From a virus, in the UHGV virus genome UHGV-0232909: a stretch of 12,461 bases of DNA; one strand, 5' to 3'. Shown piece by piece: positions 1,703-7,679 of this stretch. Numbering within the stretch: position 1 is the first letter of the stretch; each line of letters begins with the position of its first letter. The position numbers were made by a program, and so were the translations under genes. The notes under the pieces are model-generated. The model did not search any database. It had not been told where the DNA came from and worked only from the letters and a program-made list of their open reading frames with translations.

Positions 1703-1738
1703 TTTTCCCGGGTGCAGCCGGTTTTGATGGAGAAAATT

Positions 1739-2020
1739 ATGAACACCTTGTTTTTACTGATGGCTGAATTCAATACCCCTAACATTGAACTCTCAGCAGT
1801 TAGCCAAAAGTACTTTGGCATGAGTCCAGCCACGGCAGAAGCAAAAGCAAACGCTTGTAAGTTGCCCGTTCCAACATATCGCATCGGCACATCACAAAAA
1901 GCAAAACGTTGCATCAATATTCAGGATCTTGCGGAATACATAGACAAAAGACGAGAAGAAGGACGTATCGAGTGGGAACAGGTCAGAACAAGCAAACAGA
2001 AGGGCAAAGAACATCACTAA
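1739..2020 (+). CDS. PrtN/excisionase-like small DNA-binding protein (putative Xis)
   Basis: N-terminus MNTLFLLMAEF... is typical of the PrtN / prophage excisionase-like family. GGAG at 1729-1732 sits 6 nt before ATG 1739; the longer ORF-track version starts at GTG 1712 without an RBS. Located upstream of, and in the same orientation as, the integrase. Confidence 0.65.
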   Translation: MNTLFLLMAEFNTPNIELSAVSQKYFGMSPATAEAKANACKLPVPTYRIGTSQKAKRCINIQDLAEYIDKRREEGRIEWEQVRTSKQKGKEHH

Positions 2021-2022
2021 AT

Positions 2023-2050
2023 AAAAAACCCGCCTAAAGGCGGGTTTTCA
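2023..2050. terminator. bidirectional rho-independent terminator
   Basis: AAAAAA-CCCGCC-TAAA-GGCGGG-TTTT: a perfect 6-bp GC stem (2029-2034 / 2039-2044) with a 4-nt loop, flanked by an A-run upstream and a T-run downstream, so it gives a U-tract on either strand. It lies between the convergent genes ending at 2020 (+) and 2068 (-). Confidence 0.7.
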
Positions 2051-2067
2051 AAAAGCACCAGCTATGA

Positions 2068-2241
2068 TCATGCTGCTTTGCGACGACGAAGCTTACCCTG
2101 CTGCTCTTTACCAGAGACAGTAGCGTGAGTGAACGCATTATGAGCAGCCTTCATCAGAACTTCAACAGCAGCACCCATACCTGCGAATGCTTTCATTGTG
2201 TCGAACTTAACCTGTGGCTTGGTTGCTTTTTGATCTTCCAT
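2068..2241 (-). CDS. small basic-tailed protein (57 aa), third gene of the minus-strand accessory cassette; absent from the ORF track
   Basis: Hand translation of the minus strand: MEDQKATKPQVKFDTMKAFAGMGAAVEVLMKAAHNAFTHATVSGKEQQGKLRRRKAA. A strong SD (AGGAG) sits 7 nt upstream of the ATG (ATG = complement of 2239-2241). Stop at 2068-2070, immediately followed by the bidirectional terminator. Confidence 0.45.
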   Translation of the reverse strand: MEDQKATKPQVKFDTMKAFAGMGAAVEVLMKAAHNAFTHATVSGKEQQGKLRRRKAA

Positions 2242-2280
2242 AGAAAACTCCTGAAGTTATACCGAAACAATTCCTGTTGT

Positions 2281-2700
2281 TTACTCATCATCAATAGATG
2301 ATACGCAATATTTATTTTTAAATTTAAGGTTCTTTGGCGTAACTTCATCAGAGATATCAAAACCGTCCAGAATTCTATTGAATGTAGCTTCTGGCATATC
2401 ATCATGAACAGAAATCTCACCCGATCGCTGCTTTCTAACCATGTTATCCACTCGCCAAATTATAGCTTCAGCGTAAACAACATAACTTGGATGCTTGATA
2501 AAGCGATGATCACCAGAATTCAAGATGCAAGACGGATCGTGGGGGACACCATCCTTGATACTAGAAATATTAACAACTAAAACACAATAACAATCGTTAA
2601 CGGGGTAATAAACAGGATCATTACAAATCACATGAAGATGATTGCATGGCCCAGTTGGGGCAAGCACAGTTCCTTTCCTGTATGGCTGATAATCCGTCAT
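2281..2700 (-). CDS. unknown 139-aa protein translationally coupled to the Panacea-domain gene (candidate toxin/effector)
   Basis: ATGA overlap with the upstream gene (stop/start share 2697-2700). No recognised family. Cys/His-rich N-terminal half (CNHLHVICNDP...DCYC...DPSC...DHRFIKHPS) and acidic C-terminus (SSIDDE). AT-rich codon usage unlike the flanking phage genes. Confidence 0.65.
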   Translation of the reverse strand: MTDYQPYRKGTVLAPTGPCNHLHVICNDPVYYPVNDCYCVLVVNISSIKDGVPHDPSCILNSGDHRFIKHPSYVVYAEAIIWRVDNMVRKQRSGEISVHDDMPEATFNRILDGFDISDEVTPKNLKFKNKYCVSSIDDE

Positions 2701-3269
2701 GATAATTGCAAAGAAAATTCCTTAAGTTTCTGAGATTCTTCCATTTTGCCAATTATGCGATTAGCCTCATCCTCGCTTTTACCCTCACTGATCAGCATTT
2801 CTTTCAGGTCTATAGGCTTACGAGAATTGCCAGGATCGTGCCACTCTGGACAAACGCTTTCTAAATGCGTCATATTTGCGAGATCAAATCGGTTCATATG
2901 CCCATACCGAGAATAGATTTCATCTAAAATCCGGATATCTGCACGACTCAATTCATCAAAGACCTCGTCTGCATCCATTTCCCTCGGATCTGAACGCAAC
3001 GATACATTATGCCCGTTCGTCTCTATCAAGTTGTACCAGTAGTCACCAATGCCTTCAGCCTTACCGCGAATCAAGTTCAGCGTATTCGACATGACTGGTC
3101 CAAATTTCATAGAGTAAAGGCTATCTTCGCCGATCATCCTGCCATGCTTCAAAATCGACTGGCGGTTAGACAGATAGAGCAACTTCATCAATTTCAGATA
3201 TGCCATGCGCCCACCTCGCTTAAGAAGTAGGTATGCAGCCATTTGAGCTACTTTTTCTTCGCAAAACAT
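2697..3269 (-). CDS. Panacea-domain protein (SocA/PanA-like; DUF4065), putative antitoxin
   Basis: 190-aa ORF. The segment AAYLLLKRGG-RMAYLKLMKLLYLSN...KFGPV matches the Panacea-domain core pattern (K-L-x-K-L-L-Y ... G-P-V). GAGG lies upstream of the ATG (complement of 3267-3269). First gene of a three-gene minus-strand operon. Confidence 0.75.
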   Translation of the reverse strand: MFCEEKVAQMAAYLLLKRGGRMAYLKLMKLLYLSNRQSILKHGRMIGEDSLYSMKFGPVMSNTLNLIRGKAEGIGDYWYNLIETNGHNVSLRSDPREMDADEVFDELSRADIRILDEIYSRYGHMNRFDLANMTHLESVCPEWHDPGNSRKPIDLKEMLISEGKSEDEANRIIGKMEESQKLKEFSLQLS

Positions 3270-3660
3270 ATAAGAAACCTCAAAGATAGTGAACTTTATA
3301 ATTATTCTCGATACTTCATGGGTTGCTTCATCACCAACACGAGCTTCTTATGGTGTGCCCACTTGGGCCTAAGCAACCAGTTACCTCGTTTGTCAAGTTT
3401 ATAGCTGGCTTTAACCATGGTCAATTGAAGTGATGAGCAAATGATGCTTTCTAAGAATAACAGGTTCCCAATAGGCTCCCACAAAGTGTATAACTAGTTG
3501 TTTTTCAAAAACGGTACATCCTATCGAGCATAGGAGCAATGCTAAACCGAGAATTCCAGTAAACACCAGTTTTTTCAGGCATCACGCTGGTTTGATTAAT
3601 TTTTTGTGTTTCATGATTATCGTGCATTTTTGAACATTTCAGGCTATTTTTCTCGCATTA

Positions 3661-3696
3661 GGTTCCCGCACAGGTTCCCACGTTTTATGGGAACCC
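3661..3696. promoter_or_regulatory. cluster of GGTTCCC(A) repeats immediately upstream of int (candidate operator or integrase arm-type sites)
   Basis: GGTTCCC at 3661-3667 and 3673-3679 (direct) and GGGAACC at 3689-3695 (inverted), giving the palindrome GGTTCCCA-cgtttta-TGGGAACC. A second pair, CAGGTTCCCA / AGGCTCCCA, lies at 3461-3480. The int RBS (GAGG, 3705-3708) and ATG (3716) follow directly. Confidence 0.3.
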
Positions 3697-3715
3697 GAAA
3701 TAACGAGGTCGTGTA

Positions 3716-4813
3716 ATGGCGTACTATAACATAGAGAAACGACTAAAATCCGATGGCACACCACGCTATCGCTGTAATGTGATTATCAAAGAAAAAGGTG
3801 TTATCACTTACAGGGAAAGCAAAACATTCCCTAAACATGCTCATGCCAAAACATGGGGCACACAGAAAGTGATGGAATTAGATCTATATGGCATTCCATC
3901 ATCAAATGCAGTTGACGGACTTACAGTCCGTGACTTACTACACAAATATTTAAATGACCCAAATGCCGGAGGTAAAGCAGGCCGTACTAAAAGATATGTG
4001 CTGGAACTGCTTATGGATAGTGACATCTCCGCGATCAAACTATCTGAACTGACAGAAAATGACGTAATTGAACATTGCAGGCTAAGAAACAACGCTGGCG
4101 CAGGTCCAGCAACAGTCAGCCACGATGTTAGTTATCTTGGCAGTGTTCTGGATGCGGCCAAACCTGTATACGGAATTAATTACACATCAAACCCGGCGAA
4201 AAGTGCTCGTCCATATCTACTTAAACTTGGTTTGATTGGTAAATCAAACCGTCGTAATCGTAGACCAGCATCTGATGAACTGGACATGCTCATTGAAGGC
4301 CTTCAACAACGATCTACTCATAAATGCTCAAAAATTCCGTTCGTTGATATCCTCAAATTTTCTGTGTGGTCCTGTATGCGAATCGGAGAAGTATGCCGGT
4401 TACGATGGGAAGATCTCGACCAGGAACAAAAATCTATACTCGTAAGAGACAGGAAAGATCCACGCAAAAAGGAAGGCAACCACATGAAAGTAGCCTTGCT
4501 TGGGGAAGCCTGGGATATCGTCCAACGACAGCCCAAAAAATCGGAATTCATTTTTCCATATAACAGCACTTCTATTACTGCGGGATTTCAGAGGGTAAGA
4601 AGCAAATTAGGTATTAAGGATCTGCGATACCATGATTTGCGTAGAGAAGGGGCAAGTCGCTTATTTGAGGCTGGTTTTAGTATTGAGGAAGTAGCCCAGG
4701 TTACAGGGCATCGTTCATTAAACGTGCTATGGCAGGTATATACCGAACTGTATCCGAAATCTTTACATAATCGTTTTGAAGAGCTCCAAAGGAGCAGAAA
4801 TAAGACCCCTTGA
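3716..4813 (+). CDS. int: tyrosine-type site-specific integrase
   Basis: 365-aa ORF with RBS GAGG 7 nt upstream. Carries the conserved tyrosine-recombinase boxes: MRIGEVCRLRWEDLD (Arg box), HDLRREGASRL (H-x-x-R) and a C-terminal GHRSLNVLWQVYTELY with the candidate catalytic Tyr. Confidence 0.9.
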   Translation: MAYYNIEKRLKSDGTPRYRCNVIIKEKGVITYRESKTFPKHAHAKTWGTQKVMELDLYGIPSSNAVDGLTVRDLLHKYLNDPNAGGKAGRTKRYVLELLMDSDISAIKLSELTENDVIEHCRLRNNAGAGPATVSHDVSYLGSVLDAAKPVYGINYTSNPAKSARPYLLKLGLIGKSNRRNRRPASDELDMLIEGLQQRSTHKCSKIPFVDILKFSVWSCMRIGEVCRLRWEDLDQEQKSILVRDRKDPRKKEGNHMKVALLGEAWDIVQRQPKKSEFIFPYNSTSITAGFQRVRSKLGIKDLRYHDLRREGASRLFEAGFSIEEVAQVTGHRSLNVLWQVYTELYPKSLHNRFEELQRSRNKTP

Positions 4814-4861
4814 CACTGTTTATCCATACAGTTAAAAATAATACTGTATACAAACACAGTA
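4810..4861 (+). promoter_or_regulatory. SOS-regulated promoter: TTGACA -35 hexamer plus two LexA boxes (CTGT-N8-ACAG)
   Basis: TTGACA at 4810-4815 overlaps the int stop codon. LexA-like box 1 is caCTGTttatccatACAGtt (4814-4833). Box 2 is taCTGTatacaaacACAGta (4842-4861), a near-consensus SOS box lying between the promoter and the RBS AGAGGG (4863-4868) of the DinI-like gene. Confidence 0.6.
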
Positions 4862-4874
4862 TAGAGGGACTTTT

Positions 4875-5123
4875 ATGCGTATTGAAATCTGCATAGCCAA
4901 AGAAAAAATGACTAAAATGCCAACCGGTGCTGTGGATGCGTTAAAGGAAGAATTAACCCGACGCATCAGTAAACGTTATGACGATGTAGAGGTGATCGTA
5001 AAAGCCACCAGCAACGATGGCCTTTCTGTTACACGCACCGCAGATAAGGATTCTGCAAAAACTTTTGTTCAGGAGACTCTGAAAGATACCTGGGAATCTG
5101 CTGACGAGTGGTTTGTTCACTAA
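4875..5123 (+). CDS. dinI: DinI-family DNA-damage-inducible protein (phage-borne paralogue)
   Basis: 82-aa protein [31 protein letters not shown]...[16 protein letters not shown] aligns along its whole length with E. coli DinI from memory (MRIEVTIAK...QETWESADDWFV). Preceded by LexA boxes and a good RBS. Confidence 0.85.
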
Positions 5124-5190
5124 TTAACACGTAAAATCGGTAACGGCTGGAAATCATTCAATAATCGCACTATCGAAAGTTCGCCAGCCA

Positions 5191-5226
5191 GCCGCAGCAC
5201 GTTCTTGCATACGACGTGGCTGCGGC
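5191..5226. other. extended imperfect stem-loop between the DinI-like gene and the invertase remnant
   Basis: GCCGCAGC (5191-5198) pairs with GCTGCGGC (5219-5226); the inner CACGT/ACGTG also pair, giving a stem of about 12 bp with one bulge and an 11-nt loop. No clear U-tract on either strand, so it is not a canonical intrinsic terminator. Confidence 0.35.
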
Positions 5227-5266
5227 TTCCAACATTAGACAAATAACTCTTTAAATTGCTTTTAAA

Positions 5267-5635
5267 TTATTTCGTTTGAATGCCAGTAACAGGAAATCGT
5301 TTATATAGGGTTGATAGCCCAACGTTATAGATACGTGCAACATAACGCCGTGATTTCCCTGCCGCTATGAGCGCTCCCATCTGTTGCCACTGCTCGTCGC
5401 TAAACTTCGGTCTACGCCCACCAATCCGGCCTTTGGATCTGGCAATAGCCAAACCAGCTAAAGTTCGCTCGCTATTCAAATCAGATTCATACTGCGCAGC
5501 AGAAAGAATATTACGGAAATTATAGCGACCACTTGCTGTTTTCAGGTCTACGCCATCTGTAATACTCCGAAAATTAACACCTTTTTCGTGCAGATTTTGA
5601 AACATCAATAGCGCATGCAGCACATTTCTCCCTAA
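5267..5635 (-). pseudogene. pin: N-terminally truncated serine DNA invertase (Pin/Gin/Hin family) remnant
   Basis: The translation ...PLGRN-MLHALLMFQNLHEKGVNFRSITDGVDL...SKGRIGGRRPKFSDEQWQQ...YNVGLSTLYK matches the C-terminal two thirds of Pin/Gin (LGRSMKHLISLVGELRERGINFRSLTDSIDT...NKGRIGGRPPKL...ALSTLYKK). The roughly 70 N-terminal residues, including the catalytic Ser region, are absent; similarity stops near 5636 and no ATG-initiated full-length frame exists. Confidence 0.8.
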
Positions 5636-5641
5636 GGGGAA

Positions 5642-6001
5642 TTGTCTGCTGCTGGGGTTAGCGGTGGCGCTGCATCTGCTTCAGGATACATCACCATTCC
5701 GATGATTATTAATGGAGCAAGGCGGGTCTTATACATCCAATGGGGGGGATTTACAGGAACTACAGATAGCTCCGGCTCCAACGGAATATATGAAACCTCA
5801 AATATCACCGTCACCTGGACAGTTGCTTTCCCCAATGCGGTTTTCCAGGTGATAACAGGCGGTTCATCTGATGTTAGTGGTGTCGGGCAGCAAGAGATGG
5901 CATGGAGTCTGGGCAAAACAAAAACTAATGGGATTTTTGGTTTTCAATGCCGGACACCAAACGCATCGATGACTGGCTCATATCTTGTAATTGGTTATTA
6001 A
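5642..6001 (+). CDS. tail-fibre C-terminal (variable-domain) cassette lacking an N-terminal anchor domain; silent alternative segment
   Basis: Gly/Ser/Thr-rich beta-type sequence typical of phage tail-fibre distal domains. The frame opens at 5636 exactly where invertase homology ends on the other strand; only a TTG start (5642) is available. Directly followed by a tfa gene, the usual Sv'-U' arrangement of Mu G / P1 C / e14 invertible segments. Confidence 0.55.
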   Translation: MSAAGVSGGAASASGYITIPMIINGARRVLYIQWGGFTGTTDSSGSNGIYETSNITVTWTVAFPNAVFQVITGGSSDVSGVGQQEMAWSLGKTKTNGIFGFQCRTPNASMTGSYLVIGY

Positions 6002-6014
6002 ACGAGGACATCAC

Positions 6015-6491
6015 ATGAGATTTTCAGTTAGCACCCAATCATTCTACGATGATAATTACGAGGAAAACGCAGTAGTCAACGATTTACCCTCAGATGTTCA
6101 GGCGATAGATGATGAGCAATATGCTAGTTTTTTTAATGCAATAAATAGTGACCGGGTGGTTTATCTGGTTGCTGACGAATTCACGATTTCTCAACCCCGC
6201 CCCGATAAATACTATTCATGGGATATGACAAGTAAGACCTGGGCTATGACTGATGCTGCCGTAGCACAAAAGTCGGCAGACCTGATAGCTGATGCTGAGC
6301 TACGGAGAACAACGTCGTTATCAGCAGCAGGTATCGCAATATCCCCGCTGCAAGATGCCGTTGATCTGGGTATGGCTACAGATGTAGAAACGAGGCGACT
6401 GACAGAATGGAAAAAATATCGGGTATTGCTGATGCGTATTGATACATCAAAAGCCCCCGATATCGAATGGCCATCAGTACCGGTCAGTTGA
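6015..6491 (+). CDS. tfa: tail fibre assembly protein (Tfa/gpU-like chaperone)
   Basis: C-terminal region [50 protein letters not shown] matches the conserved Tfa C-terminus (APLQDAADL...[22 protein letters not shown]). ATG at 6015 with GAGGA 6 nt upstream; the ORF-track start at 5991 is a TTG. Confidence 0.8.
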   Translation: [158 protein letters not shown]

Positions 6492-6648
6492 CAAATGGAT
6501 TAGTAGACGATGATAAGAAGGTAACGTAGCGTTCGTCATCATCGTCTATTTCTTCAATGCCTGGATAAACAGTTTCATCTTGCGGACTGTAGAAAACCGC
6601 GCTGATCTCCTTTTTCGTGGAGTCTTTAAAAAGAACATAGATTTTCAT
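6484..6648 (-). CDS. small acidic ORF (54 aa) translationally coupled to the tail-fibre gene; absent from the ORF track
   Basis: Hand translation: [54 protein letters not shown]. Its ATG overlaps the tail-fibre stop (ATGA at 6646-6650). Its 3' end overlaps the convergent tfa gene by 8 nt (6484-6491). It occupies the position where a cognate tfa would be expected. Confidence 0.4.
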   Translation of the reverse strand: MKIYVLFKDSTKKEISAVFYSPQDETVYPGIEEIDDDDERYVTFLSSSTNPFVN

Positions 6649-7679
6649 CAGAATGAGTACCCCGTTGAATAAATTGTTGATGCCGTTGGTGTGCCGCCAA
6701 ACAAAATCTGGTAATAAATTTTCTGCGGCTCAGCAATCATCAAGTTTGAGAAAACAGATGAAATACCAGAGTTATTATTCCCCTGGGTTCGTAAGCCCAA
6801 CGGGTAGGATTTTGACGATACGGCAAATGAGTTATTTGTTGCTGGCGCTGTAGAGTTAATTAACCCCCAGCCTTCCATTGTTTTGGCGTTTTTAGGAATG
6901 GCTGAAGATACAGAAAGCTCAGTCAGTGTAGAAACCGTGTTTGTTACAGTGACAAGAGGTTGCTCTGGCGTGTTAATTTGCCTTCCCATCATCTCACCGA
7001 CAGTGAACTGGCTTGATGCTACTCTCCACACGCTAACCAATGCAGATGCCGTATAGCCTGCTGGTAGATTTGCACCGCCATAAATTTCTGGCGCGGTGGT
7101 CGTCGTTGCATTCACTGCAAGGAGTGCTGTTGCCCCGTTCGTCGGATTTAAAATTGCGTACAGGGCAATAAATCCAGCTGTCGGAACAGTCCCTGTGTCC
7201 ATACCTCCCGCGCCGGTTGTGCCGAGATTAATCGTCTTATTGAATGCACTTAGCCGGTATTGCTGCCCGGTGCTCGTCTCTACGATCAATTCATCGGCTG
7301 TAAAGGTTGCTGTCGATGATGCGGCGGCGATGCTCATACGCGCATTTCTGGATTGACCAACAACACCCGAAAACGATTCTCGCAATTGAAGGTTTTCGAG
7401 AGCCGTTTTCACCGTGCCATCCGATTTGATATCGCCAAACGGATTCTTGCGGCTTAACAGCAGCGCACGAAGCGCGGTAAGCAGCTGGTCGTGCCGCGCC
7501 TTCTCCAGACTGGCACCGGATGCCTCAACAACGCTACAAAGTTCTTCCTGCAACATGTCAAAGTAGTCATCATCCAGATCGGTGGCAGGGGTGCCGGTCT
7601 GGGGGTTACCACGGGTAAAACCGTTCTTACCCGCGCCGAACTTATCCTTCTGCGCGGTTTTCGTGTCTATACGATGCAT
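6648..7679 (-). CDS. tail fibre protein (complete, 343 aa)
   Basis: Conserved phage tail-fibre N-terminus [47 protein letters not shown]... followed by a Gly/Thr/Ala/Ser-rich distal domain. Last gene of the baseplate operon, in the position of Mu S / P2 H. Confidence 0.85.

Follow-up and report, generated by a model that had tools for sequence, protein, structure and literature searches.

A predicted Panacea-type toxin-antitoxin pair carried as cargo between the excisionase gene and attP of a dusA-integrating Escherichia coli phage

The 12,461-nucleotide stretch of viral DNA analyzed here (UHGV virus genome UHGV-0232909; hereafter the window) comes from a temperate phage of Escherichia coli and carries a small minus-strand gene cassette between its excisionase (xis) and integrase (int) genes, both of which are on the plus strand. 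We consider it probable that positions 2281-3269 contain two genes forming a PanAT-class type II toxin-antitoxin module, in which the Panacea antitoxin PanA neutralizes PanT, a toxin with a MazF/Kid-like fold that is most likely an endoribonuclease, and that this module is cargo located at the end of the prophage. The parts of this interpretation that are directly supported are the domain identity of PanA, the fold of PanT, its membership in the published toxin cluster T6, the strict pairing of the two genes, purifying selection, the mobility of the pair and the boundaries of the slot it occupies. The initial annotation, made from the sequence, had described three minus-strand open reading frames in this position as prophage-borne toxin-antitoxin architecture; all three are present, and the description holds for the first two.

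2697-3269, minus strand: panA, 190 aa, matching Pfam PF13274
2281-2700, minus strand: panT, 139 aa, predicted MazF/Kid/CcdB-type fold, assigned to PanT cluster T6
2697-2700, minus strand: ATGA start/stop overlap of the panA stop and the panT ATG, read in the sequence
3278-3281, minus strand: panA Shine-Dalgarno sequence GAGG, 8 nt before the ATG

The PanA and PanT proteins

The first gene product is a Panacea protein as originally annotated, matching SocA_Panacea (PF13274) over residues 27-137 (E = 2.2e-19; score 70.9 bits, cutoff 25.7), and RefSeq labels it a "Panacea domain-containing protein". In its AlphaFold2 model (predicted local distance difference test score, pLDDT, 92.9), PanA is a standalone Panacea domain followed at the C-terminus by a helical extension that ends in a long helix (residues 166-189). 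The best match of this model to the PDB in Foldseek was no better than E = 3. Standalone Panacea domains have been described as neutralizing their toxins directly, and a sensory role for the domain has been suggested (Ernits et al. 2023).

PanT was modeled by AlphaFold2 with 39 homologs (pLDDT 92, predicted template modeling score 0.86), and the predicted structure is a MazF/Kid/CcdB-type SH3-like barrel with two extra C-terminal helices. The structure search that had been proposed for this protein independently agrees, as Foldseek places E. coli MazF first. PanT had originally been assigned to no recognized family, and this stands for Pfam, NCBIfam and PADLOC, scans of which gave no meaningful match for either the 139-aa or the 57-aa protein of the cassette; it does not stand for PHROG, where PanT matches the unnamed family PHROG 19071 (E = 3e-31), or for the published toxin clusters described below. 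Matches to ICMT and DapC in the scans of the 139-aa and 57-aa proteins were rejected as sub-threshold noise. The PanT family comprises 2,680 clusters at 50% identity with E <= 1e-3, 918 of them with E <= 1e-10. H21 and D55 do not vary within the family and C58, G63, H65, F67, S72 and Y76 hardly do, a pattern of sequence conservation that suggests an enzyme active site. PanT is most likely an endoribonuclease that shuts down translation, and we infer that its RNase chemistry would involve the invariant His21 and Asp55, together with His65.

Panacea-linked gene pairs have been surveyed by Kurata et al. (2022; PMC8832971), who numbered the toxin clusters. In the portion of Dataset S1 of that study covered here, cluster T6 has the gene order antitoxin-toxin with overlaps of -4 or -1, and its entries come from Proteus, Pluralibacter, Pantoea, Photorhabdus, Salinivibrio, a Yersiniaceae isolate, Halomonas and Pseudomonas. 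Two homologs of the window PanT are T6 entries in the same portion: WP_025672779.1 (P0174; 48% identity, E = 2.5e-47) and WP_101821906.1 (P0132; 57% identity). By sequence, and within that part of the dataset, the window PanT is thus assigned to cluster T6. The cluster includes the PanT of Pseudomonas moraviensis, which was predicted by HHpred to be EndoA/PemK/MazF-like and was shown to be toxic and to block protein synthesis specifically, with its PanA both neutralizing it and co-purifying with it (PMC8832971). The toxin had been proposed as a potentially new effector, a proposal that its MazF/Kid/CcdB fold and its place in a cluster with a tested member do not bear out.

Pseudomonas relatives help to link the window pair to the tested one. 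Window PanA is 42-44% identical to Pseudomonas PanAs, and the PanA-linked partners in Pseudomonas are 41-45% identical to window PanT. One Pseudomonas-type PanA, 44% identical to window PanA and with a -1 overlap with its toxin gene, begins MIFSEQKVAQ, a start it has in common with the corrected P. moraviensis PanA; this pair is a close relative of the P. moraviensis pair under a different accession. By analogy with the tested P. moraviensis homolog, the window PanT would be expected to inhibit translation and arrest growth, and PanA to bind it and rescue the cell.

Both genes are maintained by selection. Against relatives 70-77% identical, the proportion of nonsynonymous differences (pN) in panA and panT is 0.16-0.18 and that of synonymous differences (pS) is 0.68-0.82, with synonymous sites saturated; the low pN/pS indicates that both are real, constrained genes under strong purifying selection. 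RefSeq starts PanT at an internal GTG (V12), giving a protein of 128 aa (WP_014640052.1; positions 3582-3968 of a related locus). The N-terminus, M1 to G10 and the first 11 residues in all, is conserved across the family, and translation therefore likely begins at the ATG overlapping the stop codon of panA.

The ATGA overlap noted originally is seen in the sequence and is kept in relatives, homologous panA/panT pairs overlapping by -4 or -1, and it is predicted to couple translation of panT to that of panA. The cassette had been credited with its own Shine-Dalgarno sequences, and good ones are found for panA and for the 57-aa gene (AGGAG, 6 nt before the ATG). None was seen at a useful distance from panT, so that its translation must depend on the predicted coupling. 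Comparison of the DNA preceding panA in different contexts revealed no shared operator or promoter, and the sequences there are unrelated. Within the window a weak sigma-70-like site upstream of panA is a candidate only, as the number of promoter-like sites does not exceed that in shuffled sequence and is thus at chance level. No Rfam family matched any part of the window, which therefore gives no sign of an RNA antitoxin.

These features suggest a simple scheme for the module. PanA and PanT would be made from one transcript, with PanA translated first and PanT following through the ATGA overlap, which would keep the two proteins in a coupled ratio. PanA would inactivate PanT by direct binding, and if PanA were lost or triggered, PanT would be free to cut RNA and translation would stop.

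Several points weigh against this interpretation. The toxicity, antitoxin binding and RNase activity of the E. coli pair are themselves predictions, and some predicted PanTs, MazF-like ones included, were not toxic in E. coli (PMC8832971, supplementary file 1). The connection to P. moraviensis PanT (WP_083201923.1) is made through the published clustering and the close Pseudomonas relatives. Pfam PemK_toxin matched neither PanT nor any of 54 diverse relatives; alignment of the PanT family to E. coli MazF in hhalign gave a probability of 0.3%; and profile searches of PDB sequences with two PanT-family alignments returned nothing. Because all three sequence-level comparisons were null, the link to MazF is one of fold, and the hhalign comparison yielded no residue-level alignment on which to place the Arg/Thr catalytic pair of E. 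coli MazF (R29/T52). Finally, a search of PADLOC-DB 2.0 that had been proposed for the three proteins of the cassette gave no match for any of them at E <= 0.1.

The cargo slot and the host phage

Wherever DNA upstream of the toxin gene was available, a panA homolog directly precedes that gene. The loci concerned are a Pantoea lambdoid prophage, a Shewanella P4-like island, an E. coli element with a giant LPD/MuF protein, 15 viral contigs, two Pseudomonas loci and four distant metagenomic members that are 27-31% identical, and across them PanA and PanT diverge together. PanAT is a moron that travels as a unit among phages, satellites and other mobile elements. In a protein collection clustered at 90% identity, PanA and PanT fall in one cluster. 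The two were probably joined through a fused or read-through member of 232 aa (P0068), a hint that panA and panT are frameshifted or fused in some genomes.

The remaining features of the region are as follows.

1712-2020, plus strand: PrtN-family excisionase-like gene (xis), PF11112 (E = 4e-23)
about 1991-3461: stretch variable with respect to phages PhiR40_1 and 1720a-02, from blastn breakpoints
2025-2048: bidirectional intrinsic terminator with perfect 11-nt arms, a 2-nt loop and a flanking A-run and T-run
2068-2241, minus strand: 57-aa gene, phrog_2741 (E = 1e-33)
2255-3462: swappable cargo unit with respect to phage mEp460, panAT plus about 190 bp upstream, from blastn breakpoints
3396-3424, minus strand: weak candidate for a sigma-70-like promoter (TTGACC-17-TAAACT), lying within the swappable unit
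3505-3630, minus strand: attP region with a phage-borne dusA 5' surrogate, carrying a partial tRNA-dihydrouridine synthase annotation; chromosomal matches end at 3630
3716-4813, plus strand: tyrosine integrase gene (int)

Comparison with three related phages places the right edge of the slot at 3461-3463 in all of them and the left edge at 2254 (mEp460) or about 1990 (PhiR40_1 and 1720a-02). PhiR40_1 carries in this slot a YafO-family toxin (PF13957, E = 2e-21) and a 179-aa partner, mEp460 a 177-aa protein of unknown kind, and 1720a-02 a possible membrane protein of 182 aa. Phages of this group have a cargo hotspot between xis and attP. The bidirectional terminator reported at the end of the cassette is confirmed as a perfect hairpin, and it separates the convergent xis and 57-aa genes. 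The cassette had also been described as more AT-rich than its neighbors; this is the case with respect to the left flank (41.9% against 47.7% G+C) but not with respect to the side comprising attP, int and dinI (42.0%).

The first 5.6 kb of the window is 99.7-99.9% identical to Escherichia phage SKA5. The lambdoid early genes present encode Ea22-like, Rv2179c-like 3'-5' exonuclease, PrtN-family excisionase, tyrosine integrase and DinI proteins, and the window also contains a Mu-like baseplate and tail-fiber block. Similarity to SKA5, which has a full 187-aa serine DNA invertase gene, stops inside the corresponding gene of the window. Here the invertase is truncated (5267-5623, minus strand; break at about 5634), retaining Resolvase-domain positions 81-144 and the helix-turn-helix and missing the catalytic N-terminus. 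The breakpoint adjoins the tail-fiber and tail-fiber-assembly genes of the invertible segment (5642-7679).

Matches to E. coli chromosomes begin at the left of the window and end at 3630, the prophage/host junction, beside a partial dusA, which identifies the phage as a dusA-integrating temperate phage of E. coli. A 40-aa open reading frame at 3505-3630 (minus strand) resembles the start of DusA. The cassette had been described as inserted between xis and int, and this is true of the phage form; attP and the dusA surrogate intervene, however, and once the phage has integrated the cassette must therefore lie at the prophage end opposite int, far from that gene. The module adjoins attR at the very end of the prophage. 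PanAT is found in 208 of 5,426 complete E. coli genomes (about 4%), in this species on chromosomal prophages only. In the E. coli GPEC1352 chromosome (locus positions 4498-6614) the phage-form junction is present, with panA, the dusA fragment and int contiguous, an arrangement that suggests two dusA-type prophages integrated in tandem.

Biological role and alternative explanations

The cassette may have a role in defense. For the benefit to the phage, we infer that exclusion of other phages by a mechanism of the abortive-infection type is the most likely candidate, with prophage addiction as the main alternative. The proposal that the module acts mainly in anti-phage abortive infection or superinfection exclusion from the lysogen, with PanA as a sensor that would release PanT upon infection, is one we advance tentatively. 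A homologous pair occupies the rexAB-like position between cI and N in the Pantoea prophage, and other copies are found in the P4-like, satellite-like island and at moron sites of tail modules, placements that favor an exclusion or abortive-infection role expressed in the lysogen. The sensory function proposed for Panacea and the ties drawn between toxin-antitoxin systems and defense (Ernits et al. 2023) point the same way, as does the presence of other toxin cargo in the same slot of related phages. Against this, such genomic positions are circumstantial, the cassette has no counterpart in PADLOC, and a literature search turned up no published phage challenge of any T6 PanAT.

It is possible, though we would not expect it, that the module is instead an addiction or stabilization element that penalizes loss or excision of the prophage, or a selfish passenger that benefits neither phage nor host. 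Classical type II toxin-antitoxin behavior, the location beside attR, the confinement to chromosomal prophages in E. coli and the high mobility of the pair would all fit such an element. Phage excision normally ends in lysis, however, so that post-segregational killing would add little, and a rex-like location, as seen in another phage, suggests a function that the lysogen expresses.

The proposed nature of PanT itself can also be questioned, as the MazF/CcdB fold could support a CcdB-like gyrase poison or some other non-RNase toxin. We regard this as improbable: every better structural match is an RNase, the tested T6 member blocked translation specifically and not replication (PMC8832971), and the invariant His and Asp suggest an enzyme over a stoichiometric poison.

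The 57-aa gene, which is annotated in RefSeq, had been counted as the third member of the unit. It is restricted to this phage lineage, where it is always beside the PrtN-type excisionase gene; in phage mEp460 it adjoins xis although panAT is replaced by the unrelated 177-aa gene, and a search downstream of other PanAT pairs found it absent from all other contexts of the pair. A tripartite system with the 57-aa protein as a functional third component is accordingly very improbable, even though only 39 nt separate the gene from panT on their common strand, a single terminator follows it and none lies between the two. The gene is probably co-transcribed with panAT and is not part of the toxin-antitoxin module.

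We can also offer a broader, speculative extension that is more doubtful than otherwise. The T6 PanT family, with about 2,700 clusters at 50% identity and without a Pfam model or a solved structure, might be a mechanistically distinct MazF-fold enzyme with an invariant His/Asp (plus Cys/His) site; if its Panacea partner were a sensor of phage infection, the pairs could form a widespread, uncatalogued abortive-infection system residing in rex-like and att-proximal slots of temperate phages. The family, the fold prediction and the toxin-antitoxin behavior have already been published, so current understanding is not changed by our analysis, and the window pair is a predicted E. coli prophage member of the PanAT class. 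If the pair works as predicted, it provides a natural example of this class in an E. coli prophage, and with it a convenient native host for studying the trigger of a Panacea antitoxin and the targets cut by the T6 toxin. In dusA-integrating phages the xis-attP slot is likewise a small, clean place to seek more lysogen-expressed cargo.

Comparison with known systems

In its genomic setting PanAT resembles lambda rexAB and the YafO pair of PhiR40_1, which are also small, self-contained morons at att-proximal, cI-proximal or tail-module sites and are swapped between otherwise near-identical phages. The proteins are unrelated, and exclusion, a known phenotype of rexAB, is for PanAT a proposal.

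SocAB is a type VI toxin-antitoxin system of Caulobacter, and SocA is the founding Panacea protein. Window PanA shares PF13274 with SocA but falls far below the cutoff of the SocA equivalog model (NCBIfam NF047745; 14.4 against 190 bits), and its partner belongs to T6 while SocB is the toxin of cluster T10. The PanAs tested by Kurata et al. bind their toxins directly and are not ClpXP adaptors (PMC8832971).

MazEF and Kid-Kis (PemIK) have toxins of comparable fold with no sequence-level similarity to window PanT, which differs from MazF and Kid in its two extra C-terminal helices and in its conserved residues (H21, D55, C58 and H65). Their antitoxins are MazE and Kis, whereas that of the window is predicted to be a Panacea protein.

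The closest known system is PanA-PanT of P. moraviensis. That pair has been tested experimentally, while the window copy is known from sequence and models, and its locus is scored "NotPhage" in the portion of Dataset S1 covered here, unlike the window pair in its dusA-phage cargo slot. In both T6 pairs a Panacea antitoxin without an N-terminal domain is encoded first, the genes overlap, and the toxin is a protein of about 130-140 aa with a MazF-like structure prediction.
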